Positions 6,128 to 29,537 of a stretch of 29,537 nucleotides of DNA are shown here, piece by piece. The notes beneath the pieces were generated by a model. That model worked only from the letters and a program-made list of their open reading frames with translations. It was not told where the DNA came from and searched no databases. A program made the position numbers and the translations under genes. This stretch comes from a virus (lineage: Duplodnaviria > Heunggongvirae > Uroviricota > Caudoviricetes): IMG/VR virus record IMGVR_UViG_3300032007_001569; one strand, written 5' to 3'. Each line of letters begins with the position of its first letter. The stretch's first letter is position 1.

Positions 6128-7180
6128 ATGAAATCTCAAATAGACGGAAGAAGCACTGTATACAATGCAATCACATCGGATGAGAAGTTGAGTCGGATTC
6201 ATAAAGAGAATAAAGAATTAGAACGTGACTTCCTAGAATATCTGTCTTCTACAAATAAATCCAAAGAAACGATCAAGCAGTATCGCGCGAATCTGCATGT
6301 TTTCTGGTGCTGGAATCTGGAATACAATGACAATAAGCGTTTTACAAAGATTACAAAGAGAGAACTTGTTCGCTTCCAGAAACATGCACTTGACGAGTGG
6401 GGCTGGTCTCCACGGAGAATGCGGACGGTAAGGGCTACGATCTCATCATTGAGCAAGTATATTGAAAACATCCTTGATGACGAGTACGAAGATTACAAAG
6501 CTATTATTGGGAAAATTGAACCACCGCCCGATTCTGAGGCAAGGACAAAAACGGTGTTCAAGGAAGAGGAACTAAATGCGCTTCTGGATTACCTCGTAGA
6601 GAAGAAGGATTACATGAAGGCGTGTGCGCTCTCACTGGCTATAAACAGTGGGCGCAGAAAGGCGGAACTCCCCCGCTTCAAGGTCGGATATTTCAGGCCG
6701 GAATTTACAATTTGTAGCGGGGCGTTATACAAGACGCCAGAGATGGTGCAGACAAAAGGACGCGGCGAAGATGGGAAGCCGCTTTTTTTATACACTCTTA
6801 CTGCCCCATTCAATCCATATCTCGATCTTTGGCTTAAAGAGCGGGAACGCTTGGGTATTGTCAGCCAATGGCTATTCCCAAAGCGTAAGCATGGCGCATG
6901 GCTCGACGAACCAATCGAAATCAGTACACTTGATTCTTGGGCGAGAACTTTCAGCAAGTTGCTTGGCAAGGCTTTTTATTGGCACAGCATCCGGCATTTC
7001 TTCACTACGAAGCTGGTCTCATATGGTATTCCGGCTGCGGTGATACAGGATGTTGTCGGATGGGAGTCTGCCGACATGGTAAATCGATATGATGATACTG
7101 ACAAAGACGACCGTTTTGAAAAATACTTCGGAGCTGAAGGCATCCGAAAAGTCGAAGCGGGATCGCTGGAAAAAATCTAA
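6128..7180 (+). CDS. Tyrosine recombinase, SPbeta YomM-like, within the tail module
   Basis: Catalytic set present: SGRRKAE (R), TKGRG (K), HSIRH (HxxR), GW, RYDD (Y). SAM-like N-terminal domain; lies directly upstream of the TMP, as yomM does in SPbeta. Confidence 0.9.
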   Translation: MKSQIDGRSTVYNAITSDEKLSRIHKENKELERDFLEYLSSTNKSKETIKQYRANLHVFWCWNLEYNDNKRFTKITKRELVRFQKHALDEWGWSPRRMRTVRATISSLSKYIENILDDEYEDYKAIIGKIEPPPDSEARTKTVFKEEELNALLDYLVEKKDYMKACALSLAINSGRRKAELPRFKVGYFRPEFTICSGALYKTPEMVQTKGRGEDGKPLFLYTLTAPFNPYLDLWLKERERLGIVSQWLFPKRKHGAWLDEPIEISTLDSWARTFSKLLGKAFYWHSIRHFFTTKLVSYGIPAAVIQDVVGWESADMVNRYDDTDKDDRFEKYFGAEGIRKVEAGSLEKI

Positions 7181-7240: not shown

Positions 7241-9712
7241 GTGGCAAGCGCTAATGACTTTGTAACCAGAATAGCGACTAGACTTGATACAACTGGTTTT
7301 GACCAGGCAATGAGAACACTTGTCAATACCAACCATCAAGTGGATGTTTCGCTTAATATGGCTACAATAAACCGCCAGATTACAGATTTGGAGCACAGGC
7401 TTCTTAACCTGAACAATCTGTTCAACAACGCTGGCGGTGGTGCTGGTGGCGGTGGTGGCGGTCGAGGACGTGGCCGTGGCAACAATGTATTTGACCTAAT
7501 GTATCGCGAAGCTGTCGATACAGCACGGGAAATCAGCCAAATCCGAATATCGCTTCCGCAAATTGATACGCGCACAAACGCGCGGCAAATCAATGAAGCG
7601 ATGGGTCAGCTTAACGCGCTGGAGGCTAGATACCGTCAGCTTATGCAGACGCTCAATGGCAACCTCACCGCGAACCAGGCATATACGCTTAACCATATTC
7701 TCGATACGCGCGGCAGACGAGTTGACCTTGCGACTGCGATTGTTGGCGACACGAACCAAATCAATGAAGCGCGAAGAGCATACGAACAACTGTTCTCATT
7801 GGCTCAGAGAATTGGTTCTATGCAAACACAGATCGCCGGATTGGACGCGAGTAAAAACGGCGGTCAGATTGCCACGCTGACTAATCAGCTTAATCAGTTC
7901 CGACAGGAGTATGCCAATGTTTTGCAGAGCGTTACGACACTCAGCCGCGAACAGCAGGATAATATTCTTGGTGTTTTTGAAAACACGGGGAATCAGCTAG
8001 ATGTTATTGCGGCAAAATTAGCAGACGCCAGACAGCGGCTCGCCGAATCAATCGGACAAAAGATTGACAATGGTGAATTGGAATCGAGCATTTCAAGACT
8101 CAGTGCCGGTTATGAGCGGTTAGGAAGCGTTGGTGGAGAAAAGGTAAAAGCGCTCAAAACAGATATTGATGAATTAAAGCAAATTCAGTCTGACCTATCT
8201 CAAACACACGATGTTGACCAGATCATATCAATGTATGAGCGGTTCAAAGATACGGCGGCGCGCGCGAAAAATACAATATCAGAATTATCTGTTGAGCAAA
8301 AACGCTTTGCGTCGGCCTCACAGGTTAATGCGTTTGACAAACAGCTATCAAGCTGGCTTGAACGCAACCGGAAGTCCGCTGGTGAATTTGGAGTATCTGT
8401 TGAGCAGGTTCAGCAGAAGCTACGCGAATTGGCCGCGAGCGGCAAAGTGCCGATAACTGTACTGAATCAGCTACAAAAAGAGTTTGCTGAAACAGATATG
8501 GAGGCGCGAAAGGCTGGTGCAACGACCAGTGCTCTCCAGTCTACAATGCAGAGCCTCGGCGACCAGTTGAAGAGATACCTGTCGTTCGCTGCGGTCGTCA
8601 ATCTGTTTAAGCAGATGGCGAAGGAAGTTCTTGCGGTTGATACAGCCATGACGGGCTTGTATCGAGTGACAAATCTTTCTGCAAGTCAATATAAACAACT
8701 ATATTCGCAGATGGTTCAATCTGCAAAGCAATATGGTTCTACGCTGACAGACATTATTGACGCGACGACCGGCTGGGTTAAGCTGGGATTTGCGCCAGAT
8801 GTCGCACAACAACTTGCAAACATCACGGCAACCTATCAGCACGTTACGGATTTGGATTCTGGAACGGCGGTTAAAAACCTTGTTACAGCCTACAAGGGTT
8901 TTGAAAAACAGCTTTTGGAGGCAAATAACGGTAATACTGCTGCGGCCATAACTCAAATCACCGACATATATGATAAGCTCGGTAACGAGTTTGCTGAAAG
9001 CGCGGCAGACTTAGGCGATGGCTTGTCGAAATCCGCTTCCGTTCTGGCAACAGGTGGCGCTTCAATTCAACAAGCGGCTGGCCTATTTACAGGCATACAA
9101 GAAACGATTCAAGATAGTTCTGTCGCTGGTCAGACGCTAAAGATTTTAACTTTGCGTATTCGCGGCATGAAGGGTGAGCTGGAAGAGCTTGGCGAAGAGG
9201 TTGATGATGATGTCGATTCTCTGTCCAAGGTACAGACGCAAATTCTGAATCTTACACACGGGAAAGTCAACATCTTTGACGATCAGCAGAATTTCAGAAA
9301 TATCTATGAAGTCCTTCGTGATATTGCCGGAGTTTATGGCGAATTGAATGATGCCGATTCTGCTGCATTGCTTGAAGTCATTGCAGGTAAGAACCGCGCA
9401 AACGCAGTTCAGGCATTGCTTAATCAGTGGGATCAGGTTGAAAAGGCTACTGAGGCCGCATACAATTCTGCTGGCACCGCTGCCGCAGAACAGGAAAAGT
9501 ACATGCAGTCTTTGCAGGGTCGTCTTGATTCATTCAAGGCTTCCTGGCAAGCTCTGGCAAATGATGTTATTGATTCAGACCTACTTAAATCTGGCGTCGA
9601 TTTCGGCGCTCGTATACTAGACACAATAGACGCGCTCATCAATCGCATTGGCGTTCTTATTCCGCTCGCCACGGCATTGACAGCGGCGTTGAGCTTCAAA
9701 TCTAAAACCGGT
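7241..9712 (+). CDS. Tail tape measure protein, exon 1 (824 codons)
   Basis: TP901-type TMP core (VDTAMTGLYRVTNLS...YGSTLTDIIDATTGWVKLG...). TMP-like sequence ends at KSKTG (GGT 9710-9712), the predicted 5' splice site; the last 28 codons of the called ORF (to 9799) are intron sequence. Confidence 0.9.
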
Positions 9713-10242
9713 GAACTAATTATCAGTTCCGATGCAGACTACACTATGCACCGAGTGCGCCGGAAAGCTACTAATGGTAACATGAACGATGTCGCGTGAT
9801 AATTCGCTTCGCGGCAAAGAGGGCTTTAAGAATCGTCGTTAATTGGTATGGGTGGCTCCGTACCCGAAGAGACTGGGACGAACTGTGCGTGAACCTACAT
9901 ACGACGCATGGAACTATCAGCAGCTATATCCCTATGCGAAGAAGGGAAAGTTCAGAGGCTACCAACGCGCACGGAAGCGATTGGCTTTCGTGAAGGTATA
10001 GTCCAAACTGGGATCGGCAGTAGGATAAAGCCGATTCAAAAAGCCAAGCCAGTGCGCTAACTGGCGTGTAGAAAATAGCGGGGTGGCACTCCCCTATCAT
10101 GCGTGAGATAAAATGTGCGTTTAATCAATGAGGCATAGCTCGTTCGGTGAGTGATTGTGGAGGTTTGACATGGGGTTGGCGTTTAGCCGTTGTCCGAATA
10201 GGGTTTCCGAAAAAGAAAAACGCAGTAACTTCTAAAAGGTGA

Positions 10243-10271
10243 TTGCCATATGGTTCGCCGCAGTGTATAAT
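10243..10271 (+). promoter_or_regulatory. sigma-A-type promoter inside the intron
   Basis: TTGCCA (10243-10248), 17-nt spacer, TATAAT (10266-10271); followed by RBS GAGGTG and GTG 10297. Confidence 0.75.
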
Positions 10272-10296
10272 AATAGGAAGAAATAGAGGTGATTAT

Positions 10297-10965
10297 GTGG
10301 AAAACTTCATACTGTTAATGCTCTTTACTTATCCTGGCGCGATTTCATACTGGGTATATACTAGATGCGCAAGCGACAAAACGTTTTACGTCGAACCAGA
10401 TTCTTTTAGCAGGACTGCAATTTCTTGTTTTTGCAGTATTGTTGTGACTTTATTGACGTTGTTAATTTCATCGTTGTTCTATCATATACCAAGCATCAGC
10501 GGCCTCACAAAATTCCTAACAGAAACTAATAATATATGGTTTTATGTTCTTGCCTCATTAGGTGTTAGCGTTTTTGTTGGGTTTTTATGGTATGCCATTT
10601 ATTATATTCAATATGAAATAGACAATAAGCGCAAGAAGGAATCAAAGAAGTCGCCAGCAGGATTATATAAGTCCGTTTGGGTGCAATTATTGAAGGAGTA
10701 CGAAATCGGCGGCTGTATTGTGATTATTCGGCGCAAAGGCCGCATTGTAAGAATGGGATTCCCACAGATCATCCCCGATGAAATAACATCTGATTGTGGC
10801 ATCGTCCTTTCTTACTGCGGCGAAGTTGAGAACGAATACGCAAAAGAAAACCACGGCCTCATTCAGGAGCGCGTATATAGTTATTACGATATGCACAATG
10901 ACGTTGAGCTTGAATTTCTCAATGCAAAAGCTCTAGCAAAAGCCATATCGAAAAAGAAACTCTAA
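10297..10965 (+). CDS. Intron cargo: multi-TM membrane protein (DUF6338-like)
   Basis: GTG start with RBS GAGGTG at 10286-10291; about 3 hydrophobic helices, starting LLMLFTYPGAISYWVY, then a soluble C-terminal domain; AT-rich (17/60 GC in 10561-10620). The family label is by resemblance only. Confidence 0.75.
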   Translation: MENFILLMLFTYPGAISYWVYTRCASDKTFYVEPDSFSRTAISCFCSIVVTLLTLLISSLFYHIPSISGLTKFLTETNNIWFYVLASLGVSVFVGFLWYAIYYIQYEIDNKRKKESKKSPAGLYKSVWVQLLKEYEIGGCIVIIRRKGRIVRMGFPQIIPDEITSDCGIVLSYCGEVENEYAKENHGLIQERVYSYYDMHNDVELEFLNAKALAKAISKKKL

Positions 10966-10976
10966 AAACTAGATTC

Positions 10977-11144
10977 CTATCTACGCTTAGGCTTCTTTCG
11001 CGGCTTTCGCGTTTCGGGTTTGGGGCGCGGTTTAGGCACTATCCCAATGGATGGCTCATGCGAGTGCGCTATTTTTCTGGCGATAAGTTTTTGCCTTCTG
11101 CGCCCTATTACCCTGATATGACGAGCGATTTTTGAGCTTCTCAT
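10977..11144 (-). CDS. Intron cargo: 55-aa Arg/Lys/Pro-rich peptide (not in the ORF track)
   Basis: AGGAGGT RBS 6 nt before ATG 11144, overlapping the stop of the upstream gene; MRSSKIARHIRVIGRRRQKLIARKIAHSHEPSIGIVPKPRPKPETRKPRKKPKRR*. Confidence 0.55.
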   Translation of the reverse strand: MRSSKIARHIRVIGRRRQKLIARKIAHSHEPSIGIVPKPRPKPETRKPRKKPKRR

Positions 11145-11156
11145 TCATAAACCTCC

Positions 11157-11714
11157 TTACCACTTATATCCGCAGTTGTTACACTTAAACTGTGCCCGCG
11201 CCGTAGGATTCGCTACGCCGAACGCGGTTTGAGCCAAATCCCTGCGGATGCCGGAAACGGGAACGATGTCCGTGCTACCACAGGTCGGGCATTTGGGAAC
11301 GAGGCCGAGGGCCTGTTTGATGTATGGATCGTCGGTGCGGATTGTGCCAGTGGTTATGAGCTGGTGGGCATAGTCGTCAAATTTGGCTTCGGTTTCACGA
11401 ATGAGATTTTGCTTGTGTTTCTTCCAATGCTTAACCGTATTTTTCCAATCGTGTGTAGTTGAATAATATCTATATATTGCACCAATTAAGCCTATAATGG
11501 TCAGAACAAAGCAAATCAATATGGCAAAGTTGGTGACGCTCCTATCTACGCCATATAGGTTTGAAAATACAATGATTCCAACAACCCCTACTACGAGCAC
11601 CTTAAGATAATTTCCAGAAGTATAAGTAAACCGTGGTTTAGGAGGTTTCTTCATTGCAATAATATCTTCGATTGCATTGGTTTTAATTTTGTCAAGGGAT
11701 TGAATATCAAGCAT
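11157..11714 (-). CDS. Intron cargo: two-TM membrane protein with C-terminal zinc ribbon
   Basis: Two hydrophobic helices (VLVVGVVGIIVF, FAILICFVLTIIGLIGAIY); CPTCGS...CNNCGYKW; RBS GAGGT upstream. Confidence 0.85.
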   Translation of the reverse strand: MLDIQSLDKIKTNAIEDIIAMKKPPKPRFTYTSGNYLKVLVVGVVGIIVFSNLYGVDRSVTNFAILICFVLTIIGLIGAIYRYYSTTHDWKNTVKHWKKHKQNLIRETEAKFDDYAHQLITTGTIRTDDPYIKQALGLVPKCPTCGSTDIVPVSGIRRDLAQTAFGVANPTARAQFKCNNCGYKW

Positions 11715-11756
11715 AATCTTTTACCTCGAGGCCGATCACAACGAACTTCAATTAAC

Positions 11757-11785
11757 ATTATATCAGTATACCATTTGTTTGTCAA
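11757..11785 (-). promoter_or_regulatory. Perfect-consensus sigma-A promoter, antisense to the TMP
   Basis: Reverse strand reads TTGACA (11785-11780), 17-nt spacer, TATAAT (11762-11757), about 45 nt upstream of ATG 11714. Confidence 0.9.
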
Positions 11786-11827
11786 CCTTATTTTGCTGGC
11801 AATTCACGCACGCAAGCAAATAGTTTG

Positions 11828-14800
11828 GCGCTCTTCGTTGACATAACAAAAGGTGCAGCAAAAGCAACGGCCTCTATGAAGGCGCTTAACATTGCAGCAA
11901 ACGCTGCCATTATAGGTGTTGCTGCATTTGGAGTTCAATTAATAGCTCAAAGGATAAACGCCCAACGTGTACTTGCAAATCAAGTAGACGATATTGTAAG
12001 TACATACAAGCAGAGTATTTCACAATTCGATTCAAATAAAGGCGAATTTGATAGCCTAGCAAAACGATATGTAGAATTAGGAAATGGCGTTGATGAGCTA
12101 GGCAAGAATATATCCCTAACTACAGAAGAGTATTCTGAATATCAAGAAATTACAAATAAAATAGCTACTTATGTACCAAGCCTCGTTAGAGGTTTTGATG
12201 ATACTGGTACTGCCATTCTAAATGTTAAGGGTAATGTTGAAGAGTTGATTGCGGCATATGGTGCGATGGGTGATGCCGCAAATAATTCTATACTTGAGAA
12301 CGCTTTTAACATATTCGCAGATTTTAAGAATAAACGAGATGCAAGAGCCGCAGGGAAAATGGACGATGTTATTTCTACGGCCCTTGATATTGTTGGCATA
12401 CATCCAACGCGAAATGATTATGAAATGCCGAAGTATGCTTATGATGTATTACAACGCGCTGTTAATACCAATGATATAGATTCTTTCGTTAATCAATGGG
12501 GCCGGTCAAATTTCAATGGCCGCACGCAACTATTCGATCTATTAAAAGAGATTGCACCATCAATTTGGTCTAAACAGCTTGAAGCATACAATATGCACCA
12601 AAAATCATATTTGGATGCGGAAATTGATTTCCTTAGAAACGCACTACAAGATACATCAACACATTTTGCCCTAGAGAACGTAGTTTCTGCATACGATCAG
12701 CAAAGTAGAGAAATGATTACTGGGCTGTCTACTGTCGCAAATGCCTATCTTAAAAATAAATTTAGCACTGACATGGCTGATATGCCAGATTCATTAAAAA
12801 ATATAGTGCATGGATGGGTTGATAGCAGAGACTATTCATTCTATGAATCTATTAAAAGTGAAACTGAGATATACGATGCGATAAATGGTATTATTGATAT
12901 AGTATCTCAGCTACAAAATTATACCGTAAAAATGCCTGACACCGCTGGCAATGTCAACCTTAAAAACAGAAAAGTAATTGACGCAGCAAAACTTGCAATG
13001 GCTGGATGGGATGACGCTGGCGAAGGCATTGCCACTCTATTCTCTTCAACTTACAGCGCTGGCAATAAGGAACAGGGATATGATTATGAGTACGGCAAAA
13101 ATGTCGTGATTAATTGTACCCCAATTCTACCAGATGGTTCCGTATTAAGCCCGCAGGAACTTGAAGACTATTTATATGATATTATTTCTAGCGGCCGAGA
13201 CCTTCTAGAAGCCGACAAACCAGAAAATGGTGGTTTAGGTTTATTACTAGGCATTGATGATGTTAAAGGTACACTTGAAGATGCCTACGAGGAAGCCGAG
13301 CGGCAAACTGAACGTCTACATGTTCTTCAAGATTATTACTACAATAATCGAAACGCTGGCGAACCGATCATCGCAGCATTCGATATAAGCACTAAGTTTA
13401 ATGGCAATGAGTGCTCTATTGATGAGTATCTTTCTGCGATGGCAGAAGCACAGGATGCGTTTTCAGTCCTTGACCCGGAGACACAAGCCATTATTGCACC
13501 AGAGCTAGACCTCAACACTGAAAAGCTCGAACAGCAATACGAGAACATGGTCAATCGCCTCACCAATGCTTTTGGCGGCGACAAGAGGGGGCTTATTGAA
13601 GAGCTGCTCGGTTCGTTGACCGGCGAAGAGTTTGCAAACCTCTACTCCTTCGACGGCGAGTTCCTAGACATGTCTTGGGATGAATTGCAGAATATCATCA
13701 CCGGCGTTCAGGAATTGACAGAAGCCGCAAAGGAATTTACCTTTACGCTGGACGATGAGAGCGCGGCGCTGGATAAGGTCACAGAATCTATCAGTGCTTC
13801 CGCGACGGCTACCGGTCTGAGCGCCGAACAAATCGGGCTTCTCGTTGATCGTTACAGCGAGCTAGACGGTTATGATCCTTCTAAACTATTCGAGCGTACA
13901 GAGCACGGCATCCACCTAAATGTCGATGCGTTGGAAGAGCTGGAGGCTCAGTACAGGAAGATCAAATTCGACGGCCTCAATAAACAGCTTGACGAACAGA
14001 TTGACAAGTATAACGAGCTGACAAAAGAGATCAATAACTGCAACGATGCGTTCGAGCTTGACAATTTGCGCAAGGAGCAATCTGCTGTTCTGGCGCAAAT
14101 TAACAGCACGGCAAATCTTATCGCCCAATACAAGGGCTTGACTTCAGCGTATAACGAATGGCAAAAAGCCCTTAGCACACCGAATGAGGGCGACGCTTAC
14201 GATAAGATTACTTCTGGTATTGAGTCTACTTTGGAGCTTCGCAAGAAGGGGCTTATTGGTACAGACGATTTCCAGAAATTCGCTCAATTATTCTCGTATA
14301 ACGATTTAACAGGACAATCTGCAAGCGAATACGCTAAGGTATTTGATACTCAATACCCAAAAATGAAAGCCTATTTCACGGATGGTTATGAAGGTTGCGA
14401 GGCGTTTCTTCAGAAAGTTCATGAGCTAAACGCTGAGTGGGCCTCACTCGACGATAACGGTAATTGGCAGTTTGATTTTAATAGTGACGAACTTGCACAA
14501 GAACTGGATATTAGTGTCGAAGCGGTTCAAACAATTCTTGACAAGCTCAAGGATTACGGTTTTGACGTACATATCAATTCAAATACCGAAGAAATTGAGT
14601 CACAGCTTGAACCTGTTAAAAATACCATCGAAAATGAGCTTGGCGACGCGAACGCAAATCCGACGATCACTTGGCAAAACAAGACGGACGCTGTTGACGC
14701 TTTCAAGCGTAAGACACATTTAGCTTACGGTGAGATTATTTGGAAGAATATTACCACAACGGTAAATACTTCCACAAAGACTGTCACCACAAAAACTACA

Positions 14801-17677
14801 TCAACAACCGGTGGTAGTAGTGGTGGTAGTACAGGTGGCACTAAAAAGACACCTCCGAATGGAGCTACCTTTACGCCAACTTATACCGGTACAGCCTATG
14901 CCAGCGGGGATTGGGGAACCAAAAAATCTGGTACGGCCCTGGGCGGAGAATTGGGCACAGAACTATTGGTGCGCGGCGGACGTTTTGTAACCATTGGAGA
15001 TCATGGCGCAGAACTTTTCAACTACAAGCGCGGCGACATTATCTTTAATGCCGCTCAAACCAAGGAGATATTTGAAAAAGGTAGAGCTATTTCCAACGGC
15101 GGCAGAGGCAGAGCGCTTGTTACAGGTACGGCGTTTGATTATGGTTCGGGCGGATGGAACTTGTATGATCCAAGCACCGGCATATCAACCGCCACGACAA
15201 GCACAAAGACAACCACTTCCAGCAGCTCTTCATCATCCTCTTCATCTTATTCCTCATCGTCCTCTTCTTCCGATTCAGATACTTCTATATTTGATTGGAT
15301 TGAGGTCGCGGTTGAGCGCATCGAGCTATTAATCAGCAGATTAGGCCGCACAGCCCAAAGCACCTTCCGCAATTTGACCAGGCGTTTGTCTGCTACATAT
15401 GACGAAATCTCTAAGGTTGGCGGAGAAATCCAAATCCAGCAGCAGGCGTACTATCGTTACCTGCAACAAGCAGAATCCGTTGCCCTTGACGAGAATCTGA
15501 AGCGCGCCGTTCGCAACGGCGTGATTGACATTCGGGAATATGATAGCGCTACCCAAGAGCTGATCGATTCATACTCCGAATGGTACAGCAAGGCGCTTTC
15601 GGCGGCAGACGCGGTCGAAGAATTAAATGAAACTCTTGGCGAGTTGTATCAGTCTCGTTTCGAGGCAATTCAAACCAATTTTGAAAATAGCCTTGCCTTG
15701 TTCGATCACATGACAACTTCATATGGCAACGCTCTCAATATGATTGAAGAACGTGGTTATATGGGCGGCGCTTCTCTTTACAGAGAAATGCAGAATGTTG
15801 AGCGGGAAAACATCGTCACTCGACAAAATGAGCTTAAACAACTGACACAAGCAATGTCCGACGCTGTTAATTCTGGCGCGATTGAGCTGTATTCTGAATC
15901 GTGGTACGAGATGCAGCAAAATATCAATGCTGTAAAAGAGGGCATCCAAGAATCAGAAATTGCGCTTGTCAAGTATGGCAATGCGATTCGCCAGATTGAT
16001 TGGGATGTTTTTGATTACATGCAGAACCGGATTGGCAACATCACCTCGGAGTCTGAGTTCTTAATCAAGCTACTGGGCAACTCCGAGTTGTTTAAGGAGA
16101 ACGGCCAGCTTAACGAAAAAGGGCAAGCGCAAATGGGCTTGTATGCCATGAACTATAATGTTTATATGGCACAGGCTGACAAATATGCGGCTGAAGTAAA
16201 ACGCATCAATGCGGAGATTGCGCGCGATCCAGCCAATAAGACACTGATTGAGCGCCGCGAAACCCTGCTGAACTTACAGCGTCAGTCTATCGAGGCGGCA
16301 GAAGATGAGAAGAAGGCTGTTCGAGACCTCGTTGAAAACGGGATCAAGATTGAGCTTGATGCGCTAAAAGAACTGATAGACGCATATGAGGATTCCATTG
16401 ACAGCGCTAAAGATTTGCACGATTACCAAAAGCGCATTGACAAACAGGCTGGCGAGGTTGCCTCAATCCAGAAGCAACTTGCAGCGTATGCCAACGACAC
16501 GTCCGAAGAAAACCGGGCAAGGCTTCAGAAATTGCGGACAGACCTGTCTGAGGCAATGGAAGAGCTGAACGAGACGCAGTACGATCAGTTTATCAAAGAT
16601 CAGAAGAAACTACTCGATGATCTATATGCTGATTATGAAAGCCTGTTAAATCAGCGGCTTGATGATACAAATGCGCTTATGGGCGACATGATTGATGCGA
16701 CGAATCAAAGCGCGGCATTAATCAGCGATACCATTATTGAGCAAGCAACACAAGTCGGATATACCTTGTCTGATAGTATGATGACAGCGTGGGAGAATAG
16801 TGCGACTTTCGATGTCGTAACCAGATATGGCGCTAGTTTTGATTCTCAGCTAACGACCGTAAACGCAATGCTCTCACGAATTGCGGCCAGCGTTGCCGAT
16901 GTAGTGCGCTACGGCGATATGATCTCCAGCAGTACAATCAGTAGCACAACATCAACAACATCTACCGTGTCATCGCCTGGACTTCCTACTGCTTCGCATA
17001 CTGCGCTTTCTGCTTCGGAAGTCCCATATACTCCCCCAGCGCCTACATCATCAAGTAGCGGTTCCTCTTCCGGCTCATCTGGTTCTGGATCGGGCTCCGG
17101 TAAGAGGGTTAAGGTTGGCGCGGGAACATGGTGGATAAGGTCTGCGCCGAGTATGTCCGGCACGCAATTAGGCGTTGCGAAAGAAGGCGACAAATTCACT
17201 TATACCGGCACGACAAAAAATAATTTCAATGGTATTATTTATAAGGGACAAAATGCCTGGATAAGCGCATCAGGAAGCAGCATCATTGGTTATAAGACAG
17301 GCGGTATCATTGCGGATATGCAGAAGGTGGCAATGCGCAATGGTGATGATATGATAACTGTCAATACCTTGAAAAAGGGCGAAGGCATCATGTCAGTTTC
17401 TCAAACAGAAGCGTTTAGAAAGATGGTTGAGCACTTACCGGCGCTGGAGGGCATCGTAAGCGTCTCCGGCTCTCTTTCCAAATTCAGAAATGGTGCTCAT
17501 AGTGCGGGCACAGCCAATACCTTTGAAATCAACATTCCCATTGAGCATGTGCAGGATTATAACGATTTTGTTATGCAGTTAAGGAATGACGGCAGGTTTG
17601 AGAAGTTTATCCAATCAATTACTGTCGATACGGCAGTTGGTGGTAGCAGACTCGCCAAAAATAAATTTCAATGGTGA
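11828..17677 (+). CDS. Tail tape measure protein, exon 2 (1949 aa); spliced TMP 2773 aa
   Basis: Begins ALFVDITKG directly after omega-G, with no SD before TTG 11825. Long helical and Trp-periodic regions, YASG...GELGTELLV TMP motif, Ser/Thr linkers, an SH3b-like domain near the C-terminus; followed by Dit. Confidence 0.9.
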   Translation, partial: ALFVDITKGAAKATASMKALNIAANAAIIGVAAFGVQLIAQRINAQRVLANQVDDIVSTYKQSISQFDSNKGEFDSLAKRYVELGNGVDELGKNISLTTEEYSEYQEITNKIATYVPSLVRGFDDTGTAILNVKGNVEELIAAYGAMGDAANNSILENAFNIFADFKNKRDARAAGKMDDVISTALDIVGIHPTRNDYEMPKYAYDVLQRAVNTNDIDSFVNQWGRSNFNGRTQLFDLLKEIAPSIWSKQLEAYNMHQKSYLDAEIDFLRNALQDTSTHFALENVVSAYDQQSREMITGLSTVANAYLKNKFSTDMADMPDSLKNIVHGWVDSRDYSFYESIKSETEIYDAINGIIDIVSQLQNYTVKMPDTAGNVNLKNRKVIDAAKLAMAGWDDAGEGIATLFSSTYSAGNKEQGYDYEYGKNVVINCTPILPDGSVLSPQELEDYLYDIISSGRDLLEADKPENGGLGLLLGIDDVKGTLEDAYEEAERQTERLHVLQDYYYNNRNAGEPIIAAFDISTKFNGNECSIDEYLSAMAEAQDAFSVLDPETQAIIAPELDLNTEKLEQQYENMVNRLTNAFGGDKRGLIEELLGSLTGEEFANLYSFDGEFLDMSWDELQNIITGVQELTEAAKEFTFTLDDESAALDKVTESISASATATGLSAEQIGLLVDRYSELDGYDPSKLFERTEHGIHLNVDALEELEAQYRKIKFDGLNKQLDEQIDKYNELTKEINNCNDAFELDNLRKEQSAVLAQINSTANLIAQYKGLTSAYNEWQKALSTPNEGDAYDKITSGIESTLELRKKGLIGTDDFQKFAQLFSYNDLTGQSASEYAKVFDTQYPKMKAYFTDGYEGCEAFLQKVHELNAEWASLDDNGNWQFDFNSDELAQELDISVEAVQTILDKLKDYGFDVHINSNTEEIESQLEPVKNTIENELGDANANPTITWQNKTDAVDAFKRKTHLAYGEIIWKNITTTVNTSTKTVTTKTTSTTGGSSGGSTGGTKKTPPNGATFTPTYTGTAYASGDWGTKKSGTALGGELGTELLVRGGRFVTIGDHGAELFNYKRGDIIFNAAQTKEIFEKGRAISNGGRGRALVTGTAFDYGSGGWNLYDPSTGISTATTSTKTTTSSSSSSSSSSYSSSSSSSDSDTSIFDWIEVAVERIELLISRLGRTAQSTFRNLTRRLSATYDEISKVGGEIQIQQQAYYRYLQQAESVALDENLKRAVRNGVIDIREYDSATQELIDSYSEWYSKALSAADAVEELNETLGELYQSRFEAIQTNFENSLALFDHMTTSYGNALNMIEERGYMGGASLYREMQNVERENIVTRQNELKQLTQAMSDAVNSGAIELYSESWYEMQQNINAVKEGIQESEIALVKYGNAIRQIDWDVFDYMQNRIGNITSESEFLIKLLGNSELFKENGQLNEKGQAQMGLYAMNYNVYMAQADKYAAEVKRINAEIARDPANKTLIERRETLLNLQRQSIEAAEDEKKAVRDLVENGIKIELDALKELIDAYEDSIDSAKDLHDYQKRIDKQAGEVASIQKQLAAYANDTSEENRARLQKLRTDLSEAMEELNETQYDQFIKDQKKLLDDLYADYESLLNQRLDDTNALMGDMIDATNQSAALISDTIIEQATQVGYTLSDSMMTAWENSATFDVVTRYGASFDSQLTTVNAMLSRIAASVADVVRYGDMISSSTISSTTSTTSTVSSPGLPTASHTALSASEVPYTPPAPTSSSSGSSSGSSGSGSGSGKRVKVGAGTWWIRSAPSMSGTQLGVAKEGDKFTYTGTTKNNFNGIIYKGQNAWISASGSSIIGYKTGGIIADMQKVAMRNGDDMITVNTLKKGEGIMSVSQTEAFRKMVEHLPALEGIVSVSGSLSKFRNGAHSAGTANTFEINIPIEHVQDYNDFVMQLRNDGRFEKFIQSITVDTAVGGSRLAKNKFQW

Positions 17678-25867: not shown

Positions 25868-27670
25868 ATGGCGAAAAAGATAGCTGACATCTCGCGCAAT
25901 CAAGGCGACATTGACTGGGGCCTGGCGCGAAAAGAATTAGATTTCGTTATATTCCGGGCAAGCAAGGGCGATTATGCTGACAATAGATACCTCGAATACA
26001 CCAGCCAATGTGGCGTCCCTTATGCCGCCTATCATTATGTTAAAGCCGCCACAGCTTCAGATGCGCGAACAGAGGCCCGATTTTTTGTCGAGTGTGCCAA
26101 CAAGGCACACCCACTTTTTTATATAGGCGATGTGGAGTATGAGGCTCAGACAGAGACGACTACAGAGCCGGTCTGTGTGGCTTTTCTCGATGAACTGAGA
26201 AAGCTCGGTTGTAAGCGAATCGGGCTTTACATCAACCGCAAATATGATTGGGCTGGCAAGGCCATTGGAATGTGCGACATCATGTGGATTCCACATTGGG
26301 GCGCGAATGATGGCACACTACCGGCCAGCGAATATGAGCCGAAACATCCATTTGATTTATGGCAGTACACAAGCCGTGGCCGCGTGGCCGGTATAGACGG
26401 AAATGTGGATTTAAGCATTTTGCGGAACAGGACACTTGATTGGCTCATTTCGGGCGAAAGCGATCAAAAAGAAAGTGTGAATAAGAAAATGAAATACAAC
26501 AACACAAACAAACCCATCATATGTATGCAAAGCCAAAGCACCTGCTACAGAGGCACTAAGCCAATGGATGTTTGGGGTGTTCTTTGGCATAGCACGGGGG
26601 CAAACAATCCCAATCTCTCGCGCTACATTCAGCCGTCAGATTCTTTGGCTGGACGTTCGGCGGACACATACAAAGATAGAAATGAAGCATTGGCCGTCAT
26701 AGGCGTAAATAAGTATGGTAACGACATCAATCATAAAGAGCGGAATATGGGGATGAACGGCTGGATCGGCAAGCTGGCAAATGGTGAGGTTGCGGCTGTC
26801 CAGACCATGCCCTGGAATTGGGCACCTTGGGGCTGCGGCGCTGGAAGCAAAGGTTCCTGCAATAGCCACTGGATTCAATTTGAAATTTGTGAAGACAATC
26901 TCCAGAACCCGGATTATGCTATGCAGGTATACAAAGAGGCGTGTGAGCTAACCGCCTACCTCTGCAAGATGTTTAACATCAATCCATTTGCTACTGTCCA
27001 GTTTAAGGGTGTAACCGTTCCGACGATTATTGACCACAAGACAAGCCATGCGCTTGGCCTGGGAAACAATCACGGCGACATTGAGCATTGGTTCCCGAAG
27101 ATTATCGGAAAGACGCTGGAAGACATTCGAGAAAATGTCGCCGCCCTGATGAACGCGAGCGGAGATATTGTCATTGAGCCGCCTGTCACCCCGCCGACTG
27201 GAACGACCACAACCGGAGTCGCTTTCGGGAGCCGCACAATTAAGCGCGGCGTCAAGGGAAGTGATGTGAAGGAGCTTCAGGAGAAGTTGATGGCGCTTGG
27301 CTACAAGCTACCGAAATACGGTGCTGATTCGGATTGCGGCGGCGAAACCGTCAATGCAATCATCGCATTCCAGAAGGACAATGGCCTGACGGCAGATGGA
27401 ATATTCGGTGCAAAATCCTTTGCGAAGCTAAATGAACTACTGGCATCGAAGCCCGGAAACGATGGAACAACTAATGGCACTATAAAGCTGGTCGTGACCG
27501 GCAATGCTGTGAATGTCCGTAATGCTCCTTCAACGACGACGGGTAAAATTATGTATGTCGTGAAGAAAAACGATATGCTCAATGCGGTTGCCATTGATGC
27601 CGCGACACAGTGGTACAAGCTCGATGATGGTAATTACATTAGCAACCTCTACGTTTCAACATACCGATAA
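25868..27670 (+). CDS. Endolysin: GH25 muramidase + Amidase_2 + PG-binding_1 + SH3b
   Basis: IADISRNQGDIDW...DVE...WQYTSRG...GNVDL (GH25); VLWHSTG, QFEICED, IIDH (Zn amidase); GSDVKELQEKL...FQKDNGLTADGIFG (PG-binding); VNVRNAPST (SH3b). Confidence 0.92.
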   Translation: MAKKIADISRNQGDIDWGLARKELDFVIFRASKGDYADNRYLEYTSQCGVPYAAYHYVKAATASDARTEARFFVECANKAHPLFYIGDVEYEAQTETTTEPVCVAFLDELRKLGCKRIGLYINRKYDWAGKAIGMCDIMWIPHWGANDGTLPASEYEPKHPFDLWQYTSRGRVAGIDGNVDLSILRNRTLDWLISGESDQKESVNKKMKYNNTNKPIICMQSQSTCYRGTKPMDVWGVLWHSTGANNPNLSRYIQPSDSLAGRSADTYKDRNEALAVIGVNKYGNDINHKERNMGMNGWIGKLANGEVAAVQTMPWNWAPWGCGAGSKGSCNSHWIQFEICEDNLQNPDYAMQVYKEACELTAYLCKMFNINPFATVQFKGVTVPTIIDHKTSHALGLGNNHGDIEHWFPKIIGKTLEDIRENVAALMNASGDIVIEPPVTPPTGTTTTGVAFGSRTIKRGVKGSDVKELQEKLMALGYKLPKYGADSDCGGETVNAIIAFQKDNGLTADGIFGAKSFAKLNELLASKPGNDGTTNGTIKLVVTGNAVNVRNAPSTTTGKIMYVVKKNDMLNAVAIDAATQWYKLDDGNYISNLYVSTYR

Positions 27671-28664: not shown

Positions 28665-29537
28665 TCAGACATTTTTTTTGACCTTCAGTTCGGTGTCATC
28701 CGGCATATCCACAAGCCGCCCCATCTGCTCCACAACGCTTTCGACATCTGAATGTGCATAAGCGTTGAGGGTAAACGCCACATCGGAATGCCCCATTATG
28801 TACTGTAGCGTTTTGGGCTGCATTCCCGCATTTGCCATATTGGTGCAAAACGTATGCCTGAACACATGTGGTGTGATATTCGGCATGACATAATCTGGAT
28901 GGCGCTTATGGAACTTTATATTCGCGTTGCGCAATGTCACCTGGATGTTCTGTGACGTTTTCGGATTCCCGTAGGCGTTGAGTAGGATAAATCCACTCTT
29001 CCCGTCGATTATACGCTCAATCTTCGGTGCTTTCCTGTTCGATAAGATGCGTTTCAAACTTGCGTATACATCGGCGGACATCGGAATATACCGCTCTCCA
29101 CTTTTCGATTTTGGCCCGACAACGCAAAGGGTTCCATCGGCTTTCTTGTACAACTGATGGTCAACGCGAATTAGGTGGCTATCAAAATCAATGTCTGATT
29201 TTGTCAGCCCGCAAAACTCACTGACACGCAAACCAGTTCCAAGCAAAACGACGTATTCGTCATAGCTCGTGTAGAAGAAATCGTCGGTTTTAATGAAGTC
29301 CATCCAAATCTTTTGTTGTTCCAATGTCAAAGCTGGTTTTGGTTGCCTGTTATCTTGTATGACACTCTTCAAGCGAAAACCAAATGGATTTCTGCCCACC
29401 AAATCATCGTCACACGCAACCTCAAATGCCCGCCAAAGCAGAAAGCGCACGATTTCTATGACGCTATACGACTTTCCTGATGCAGATAATTCCTTTATCC
29501 ACAGTTGTGCGTCAATCTTCTTCATTTTGTCTATCGG
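28665..29537 (-). CDS. int: Phage integrase (tyrosine recombinase), 5' end outside the window
   Basis: GLRVSE (R), KSKSGER (K), HVFRH, MGH, AYAH (Y); the frame stays open to the window edge. Confidence 0.92.
   Translation of the reverse strand, partial: PIDKMKKIDAQLWIKELSASGKSYSVIEIVRFLLWRAFEVACDDDLVGRNPFGFRLKSVIQDNRQPKPALTLEQQKIWMDFIKTDDFFYTSYDEYVVLLGTGLRVSEFCGLTKSDIDFDSHLIRVDHQLYKKADGTLCVVGPKSKSGERYIPMSADVYASLKRILSNRKAPKIERIIDGKSGFILLNAYGNPKTSQNIQVTLRNANIKFHKRHPDYVMPNITPHVFRHTFCTNMANAGMQPKTLQYIMGHSDVAFTLNAYAHSDVESVVEQMGRLVDMPDDTELKVKKNV

Follow-up and report, generated by a model that had tools for sequence, protein, structure and literature searches.

An antisense zinc-ribbon gene with its own predicted promoter in a putative group I intron of a phage tape-measure gene

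In the IMG/VR record IMGVR_UViG_3300032007_001569, a tailed phage of the Caudoviricetes, a minus-strand gene and its putative promoter occupy positions 11,157 to 11,785 of the 29,537-nucleotide (nt) stretch analyzed here, which we refer to as the window. The gene encodes a 185-amino-acid (aa) protein with two predicted membrane helices and a C-terminal zinc ribbon, and it lies antisense within what we predict to be a group I intron of the tape-measure gene. We propose that the intron carries cargo and that this gene is an accessory gene of moron type, whose product most likely benefits the lysogen from the inner side of the membrane; our confidence in this reading is about even. As in morons, there is a promoter that appears to be the gene's own, an orientation independent of the late operon, and a presence that varies among relatives. 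An earlier note on this DNA had pointed to a consensus promoter on the minus strand about 40 nt inside the 3' splice site, to a two-helix protein with a CxxC...CxxC tail, to an orientation opposite to the late operon, and to a location inside a tape-measure intron, and all of these features held up. The note also linked the protein to superinfection exclusion and to recognition of the tape-measure protein, a tie that our analysis does not support. The antisense unit consists of the following features:

11157..11714, minus strand: ORF (open reading frame) of 185 aa, predicted membrane-anchored zinc-ribbon protein; ATG at 11714, stop codon at 11157-11159
11160..11297, minus strand: predicted C-terminal zinc-ribbon domain (residues 140-185), with CPTC (142-145) and CNNC (178-181), ending in GYKW
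11472..11600, minus strand: predicted transmembrane hairpin, from the hydrophobicity of the translation and the helices of an AF2 model
11723..11727, minus strand: Shine-Dalgarno sequence GAGGT, 9 nt upstream of the ATG at 11714, read from the sequence
11757..11785, minus strand: predicted sigma-70/sigma-A type promoter, a consensus match

We take the 185-aa ORF, which runs on the strand opposite to the tail and late operon, to be a real gene under purifying selection. This follows from comparison with L160, a related 56.7-kb metagenome contig that encodes the homolog P0003: of the last 80 codons, 53 are unchanged, 23 carry synonymous differences, and 4 carry nonsynonymous ones. An overprinted or noncoding origin of the conserved 3' half of the ORF was rejected, since the changes are mostly synonymous. 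The ribbon domain itself is 88% identical to that of L160 in nucleotides and ~95% identical in amino acids. Overall we found nine full-length homologs (P0001-P0009, 37-88% identity), and more than 100 further proteins match over the last ~47 residues only. The N-terminal part of the protein is an amphipathic helix with a conserved KKPxKP stretch. It is followed by helix 1 (about residues 39-56; 11547-11600), a loop of 6 residues, helix 2 (about residues 63-81; 11472-11528), a long Lys-rich helix, and finally the CxxC...CxxC ribbon. Given the Lys/Arg-rich segments before and after the hairpin and the shortness of the loop, the positive-inside rule predicts an N-in/C-in hairpin with both termini in the cytoplasm. 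An AF2 model built from a 12-sequence alignment (pLDDT 80) places helices at residues 34-51 and 58-95, in agreement with this layout.

The promoter can be read directly from the sequence, with a -35 box TTGACA at 11785-11780, a 17-nt spacer, and a -10 box TATAAT at 11762-11757. The latter is extended to TGnTATAAT (11765-11757, the TG itself at 11765-11764), a form that is common in Firmicutes. This match of 12 out of 12 positions is unique within the window. With up to one mismatch allowed, the window contains three matches versus 0.28 expected, a count reached in none of 100 shuffles, and two of the three fall inside the 2.1-kb insert. Measured from the proposed 3' splice site (11827/11828), the -35 box has its upstream edge 42 nt into the intron; the promoter lies within the 3' part of the intron and is directed away from that site, with transcription predicted to start near 11750 on the minus strand. 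L160 retains both hexamers, their 17-nt distance, and the TG, while its spacer sequence and its 5' untranslated region or leader have diverged. Across the family, extended -10 promoters scoring at least 10 are found upstream of 44% of ribbon genes versus 14% of control windows.

The surrounding tape-measure gene is divided as follows:

7241..9712, plus strand: tape-measure exon 1, 824 codons; the unspliced frame runs on to a stop at 9797-9799
9713..11827, plus strand: predicted group I intron, with the 5' splice site after T9712 and G 11827 as terminal G; the exons join in frame
9713..10135, plus strand: putative ribozyme core, with a Q-like box at 9916-9924, an R box at 9950-9963, and an S box at 9993-10004; P7 is the pairing of R and S
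11828..17677, plus strand: tape-measure exon 2 (ORF 11825-17677)

The identification of the insert as a group I intron of the tape-measure gene, with splicing predicted, is supported by the Q, R, and S boxes, by covarying pairs, by the in-frame joining of the exons, and by an uninterrupted homolog. The ORFs 7241-9799 and 11825-17677 match consecutive parts of a single tape-measure profile, phrog_4211 (positions 427-953, then 1005-1644), and with cuts placed behind T9712 and G11827 the 824 complete codons of exon 1 continue in the second frame. The homologous tape-measure gene of Enterocloster phage PMBT24 is continuous through the intron point. A homologous segment of ~430 nt occurs at the same place in five other loci, and across six homologs 37 of the 94 predicted pairs, P7 included, show compensatory changes; between the window and L160 the core region is 94% identical in nucleotides. 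The structure is thus supported by covariation and not by energy, the minimum free energy of the 5' part of the intron being no better than that of shuffles (z = -0.15). The Rfam model Intron_gpI (RF00028) gave no match, even with E up to 10 on 556 nt; Rfam called no group I or group II intron in the window and no family at gathering score in nine related loci. The Rfam group I model misses many phage introns.

The same arrangement recurs in many other loci. We collected loci from bacterial genomes and from IMG/VR by the ribbon motif alone and then searched them with the two halves of the window's tape-measure protein. In 66 of the 68 phage or metagenome loci the ribbon gene lies antisense between tape-measure-like pieces (both halves in 45, one half in 21), and a tape-measure piece on the same strand was found in none of the 68. 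The exon 1 alignments in these loci stop at residues 806-824, that is, at the splice site. The shortest introns (L080 and L103) have the ribbon gene as their sole ORF. Among the loci from bacterial genomes, 15 of 51 have the tape-measure arrangement and 36 have no tape-measure neighbor; by these matches, the ribbon domain is not confined to tape-measure genes. For the majority of the family members that occupy the slot, soluble proteins with extra N-terminal ribbons are predicted.

To remove the bias of selecting by the ribbon, we also fetched 80 loci from IMG/VR by tape-measure alignment alone. A single study contributed many of these contigs, which are related to one another; exon 2 was identified in 53 of the loci, and these have 37 distinct architectures. 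The exon 1 frame ends 2-32 codons past the junction in every one of the 80, and in the 53 the insert measures 2.9-7.2 kb. A ribbon-domain ORF is present in 40 of these 53 inserts (75%), antisense in every case; it is the last gene before exon 2 in 36 of the 40, and four are short remnants. The slot of the other 13 inserts holds other small antisense genes, among them genes for lipobox lipoproteins or N-terminally anchored proteins, and we therefore rejected the ribbon gene as an obligatory component of the intron. These counts show that, in tape-measure introns of gut Clostridia phages, the antisense slot beside the predicted 3' splice site is most often filled by a ribbon gene. In a profile search the domain was shared by more than 3,560 protein clusters of 85-270 aa, and no enzymatic Pfam domain or fusion was seen among the best 120 of them. 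The ribbon is, by these profile matches, the hallmark of a very large uncharacterized family of small proteins.

The intron of the window holds 1.7 kb of cargo, including two genes with putative promoters of their own. Besides the zinc-ribbon gene, it contains:

10048..10065, minus strand: hairpin plus T-run, the nearest terminator-like site past the end of the antisense unit
10243..10965, plus strand: second cargo gene, for a DUF6338-like multi-pass membrane protein, with its own predicted promoter TTGCCA-17-TATAAT (10243-10271)
10977..11144, minus strand: ORF of 55 aa immediately after the ribbon gene, possibly a second cistron; its product is very basic and rich in Pro

In L160 the DUF6338-like gene is replaced by an unrelated one. 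The 55-aa ORF has an AGGAGGT site that overlaps the ribbon gene's stop codon; L160 has not kept this ORF, its nucleotide similarity to the window breaking off exactly at 11157. The hairpin at 10048-10065 lies ~1.1 kb downstream of the ribbon gene and is weak by energy. Read on the plus strand, it is a covarying hairpin of the intron preceded by a conserved A-run (alignment columns 404-421); with its T-run on the minus strand, it may have a second role as terminator for the antisense unit. The counterpart hairpin of L103 is ~100 nt past the stop of the ribbon gene.

The space between ribbon gene and ribozyme core holds 146 further ORFs in the relatives, in many unrelated clusters. Cargo representatives match NsnA (E = 3.5e-121), NsnB (1.2e-112), and the TIR protein ThsB (2.9e-39); GmrSD_N was found in 13 loci, and further matches include a metallophosphatase "effector," DUF3800, the SocA/Panacea antitoxin domain, Bro-N, and, in L146, TnpB. 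Since the inserts of relatives hold such varied recognized defense genes, the tape-measure intron is, on this gene content, a swappable hotspot for defense and accessory genes. MazF-like pairs were also observed among the toxin-antitoxin cargo (inserts of L081-L160 and L163-L242).

L160 has the same layout as the window: exon 1 (82% aa identity), insert, antisense gene (~60% aa), and exon 2. Its nucleotide similarity to the window is a mosaic, with 94% identity over 9434-10229, none over the DUF6338-like gene, 88% over 11157-11395 starting exactly at the stop codon of the ribbon gene, and a short island at 11778-11867. Positions 11395-12900 form one contiguous divergent block, which covers the membrane half of the ribbon protein (~35% aa identity) and residues 1-362 of exon 2 (37%); it is flanked by the ribbon domain (~95% aa) and the rest of exon 2 (68%). 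Inside it, only the island with the promoter and 3' splice site is kept. The block may have arisen as one recombination tract, or it may point to coadaptation. This gut phage is temperate, judging from an integrase gene at 28665-29525, which stands beside a GH25/amidase lysin gene (25868-27670).

Searches for the identity of the 185-aa protein returned little beyond its ribbon. Pfam gave weak generic zinc-ribbon matches, including TFIIB/TFIIS-type ones, all far below the cut-off; PHROGs and NCBIfam gave nothing specific, only subthreshold generic zinc-ribbon matches. Weak matches to Lar-type restriction-alleviation proteins (E = 0.003-0.09) were taken as cross-matches of the ribbon. A profile search of the PDB with the ribbon alignment found knuckle matches only (HypA, RadA, and similar), and the ESM Atlas yielded unnamed zinc-ribbon clusters, with scores below 0.9. 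Neither Foldseek (PDB, BFVD) nor a wide VIA-align search rose above the background of helical hairpins (best E = 0.012, best Z = 8.7). Thus, of the structure and profile checks that the earlier note had called for, the model agrees with the expected layout, and the profile and fold searches produced nothing specific. The translation has no signal peptide or lipobox. Pfam and NCBIfam detected no homing endonuclease domain in the protein or in ten family members, and the ribbon alignment contains no invariant His, Asp, or Glu. A homing endonuclease (LAGLIDADG, GIY-YIG, HNH, His-Cys box, or PD-(D/E)xK) was rejected on the lack of any catalytic motif and the membrane anchoring of this copy. GenBank phages gave no DNA match to the window and no tblastn match for the protein, and IMG/VR gave none when searched with the single 185-aa protein or with the single end of exon 1.

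How might such a gene work? Under the reading that we prefer, the ribbon gene would be transcribed by host RNA polymerase in the lysogen, uncoupled from the late operon in the manner of a moron, and the cargo would be spliced out of the tape-measure mRNA, so that the essential gene tolerates the insertion. The protein would insert in the cytoplasmic membrane as an N-in/C-in hairpin, holding its long helix and ribbon at the inner face. There it may act as a protective or accessory factor of the lysogen, either excluding incoming phage DNA or playing a defense or sensor role at the membrane. Several results weigh against this proposal. The antisense promoter is known as a consensus match only, and no convincing terminator was found directly after the 185-aa gene. 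The argument for defense comes from neighboring genes only, and the defense-type cargo is mostly on the tape-measure strand, opposite to the ribbon gene; in PADLOC-DB, no defense family matches the protein at E up to 0.1. BLASTP found no similarity to the exclusion proteins HK97 gp15 (E = 4.5) or TP-J34 Ltp (E = 0.44). The ribbon gene appears dispensable, a quarter of the inserts being without it. Finally, two membrane helices are predicted in just 3 of the 68 phage loci, and a membrane mechanism would not be common to the ribbon family, because most members in the slot lack such helices. Of what the earlier note had inferred, then, an independently promoted antisense accessory gene of moron type in a temperate phage stands, and the link to superinfection exclusion finds no support.

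The constancy of position and orientation makes a role linked to the intron the main rival to a moron-type gene. The ribbon protein would bind intron RNA or DNA, as a cofactor of splicing or a factor in retention or spread, or else antisense transcription would modulate how the tape-measure gene is spliced or expressed. Binding to nucleic acids is common among zinc ribbons, the mRNA of the ribbon gene would be complementary to the excised intron RNA, and the gene, fixed in place and direction next to the 3' splice site, sits in the usual place of the homing endonuclease gene of group I introns, alone in L080 and L103. However, splicing cannot depend on a gene that 13 of the 53 inserts lack, and 36 of the 51 ribbon loci in bacterial genomes have no tape-measure neighbor. 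The absence of nuclease motifs, and of invariant His, Asp, or Glu in the ribbon, also speaks against it, the promoter points away from the 3' splice site, and a membrane-anchored copy would be odd for an RNA or DNA cofactor. We consider such a role unlikely. We judge equally improbable the idea that the protein keeps the DNA of related phages out of the cell by a mechanism that depends on the tape-measure protein, and that the gene lies where it does because of this target. It is a small, predicted inner-membrane protein with an apparent promoter of its own in a temperate phage; HK97 gp15, a membrane exclusion moron, is likewise directly beside a tape-measure gene; the antisense lipoprotein genes in the slot of ribbon-less relatives recall Ltp; and the membrane half of the protein and the adjoining exon 2 residues 1-362 form one divergent block versus L160. 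Yet a single recombination tract over adjacent DNA accounts for that block, an external loop of ~6 residues makes an Ltp-like block at the cell surface unlikely, and the protein has neither a lipobox nor sequence similarity to either exclusion protein. Most of its relatives in the slot are, moreover, predicted to be soluble. An exclusion gene needs no linkage to its target, and the linkage is explained more simply by the intron as a tolerated site for cargo, so that no recognition of the host gene is required.

A membrane-tethered regulator (anti-sigma-like, or with a ribbon like that of transcription factors) or a holin/antiholin-type protein timing lysis seems to us quite improbable. Two membrane helices followed by a Lys-rich cytoplasmic tail would suit either role, and the weak TFIIB/TFIIS-type matches would suit the former, but these matches are generic and far below the cut-off. 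For a holin, 185 aa is large, the lysin gene (25868-27670) is 14 kb away, the promoter is of constitutive type, and the gene is antisense to the late genes. That the ORF and its promoter are chance matches without function is hardly credible. AT-rich phage DNA does abound in promoter-like sites (16 found versus 10.5 expected in 9-13 kb); however, the 12/12 match is unique in the window with its hexamers kept in L160, and the excess of synonymous over nonsynonymous changes (23 versus 4) and a family with thousands of members speak for a gene. Returning to the moron-type accessory gene, we would extend the proposal only tentatively, and with considerable doubt, to the family at large: the CPTCGS...CxNCGYKW proteins may form a new, widespread class expressed from prophages, for exclusion or defense or as intron-maintenance factors, and group I introns of tape-measure genes a previously unrecognized hotspot for defense and accessory genes.

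Morons, group I introns in structural genes, and defense hotspots of prophages are each known; their combination is unusual, and in the literature searched we found no description of an antisense zinc-ribbon gene in a cargo-carrying tape-measure intron. The HK97 gp15 moron shares with our case a gene for a small membrane protein with its own host-type promoter, in the tail block of a temperate phage and beside tape-measure sequence. It differs in that gp15 has 62 aa, lacks a zinc ribbon, and lies between genes on the strand of the late operon, whereas the window gene is antisense, inside an intron, and 185 aa long and shows no sequence similarity to gp15. TP-J34 Ltp is likewise an envelope-associated protein with its own promoter, expressed from the prophage, and some ribbon-less relatives of the window have antisense lipoprotein genes in the slot; the window protein, in contrast, has no signal peptide or lipobox, is predicted to face the cytoplasm, and shows no similarity to Ltp. 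IStrons are group I introns fused at their 3' end to an IS200/IS605-type element. They too combine a group I ribozyme with non-endonuclease genes in the 3' part, and the cargo of the relative L146 includes TnpB. In contrast to IStrons, cargo of the window type consists of promoter-bearing accessory and defense genes with no transposase module, at one conserved site of one gene. The tape-measure genes of prophages from the Bacillus cereus group are interrupted by the group I introns TMP-IVS1, IVS2, and IVS3, several of them without a complete homing endonuclease gene (Tourasse and Kolsto 2008, PMC2504315). An intron of this class in a prophage tape-measure gene is thus common to both cases. As described, the TMP-IVS introns have a gene for a GIY-YIG or H-N-H homing endonuclease, remnants of one, or no complete one, and the word "antisense" is absent from that paper, whereas the window intron carries 1.7 kb of cargo with two genes that appear to be independently promoted. 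Hotspots of P2/P4-type prophages and satellites hold changing antiphage systems at a fixed position in related temperate phages (bioRxiv 10.1101/2021.01.21.427644). As described there, these hotspots lie between genes; the tape-measure hotspot differs in lying inside an essential structural gene, which splicing would make tolerable, and in having a zinc-ribbon gene as its usual resident.

If these introns are such a hotspot, then thanks to RNA splicing an essential structural gene would be able to house kilobases of exchangeable genes that have promoters of their own. This would explain how large gut phages can carry defense genes inside a tail gene without losing the tail. Standard annotation misreads such loci as two tape-measure genes plus hypothetical proteins, with Rfam calling no intron. 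The family of more than 3,500 protein clusters is a candidate for functional study, and the window copy, a rare variant with a predicted membrane anchor, would be handy for studying localization and exclusion.

Some further observations concern the tape-measure gene and its surroundings. A second break of 2-3 kb was seen in the exon 1 alignments of L083, L084, L089, L092, L093, L096, L098-L100, L102, L106, L109, L115, L119, and L130, near window residues 515/522, 555/718, 618/622, 642/646, 655/656, 691/695, or 704/709; these tape-measure genes seem to carry more than one insert. The upstream insert of L093 contains a 320-aa ORF on the sense strand whose C terminus looks like a homing-endonuclease-type nuclease and is a candidate for one. 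Directly upstream of the tape-measure gene, the window has a tyrosine recombinase gene (6128-7180, plus strand; Phage_integrase and SAM-like N-terminal domain). It is on the late strand, conserved in L160, and additional to the integrase gene at 28665-29525. Upstream of the tail genes, a plus-strand gene at 443-1282 encodes a protein with pentapeptide repeats and DUF5758. Within the intron, between the ribozyme core and the DUF6338-like gene, positions 10123-10228 (plus strand) match the Rfam "drum" RNA just below threshold (40.9 bits versus a gathering score of 43, E = 1e-5), and this drum-like RNA is conserved in L160. According to Weinberg et al. (2017, PMC5737381), the drum, skipping-rope, and DUF3800 RNAs are associated with neighboring genes, which may lie in either orientation. 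DUF3800 genes are themselves cargo in the related tape-measure introns of L118 and L120, and orphan RNA motifs of this kind may belong to such intron cargo cassettes.

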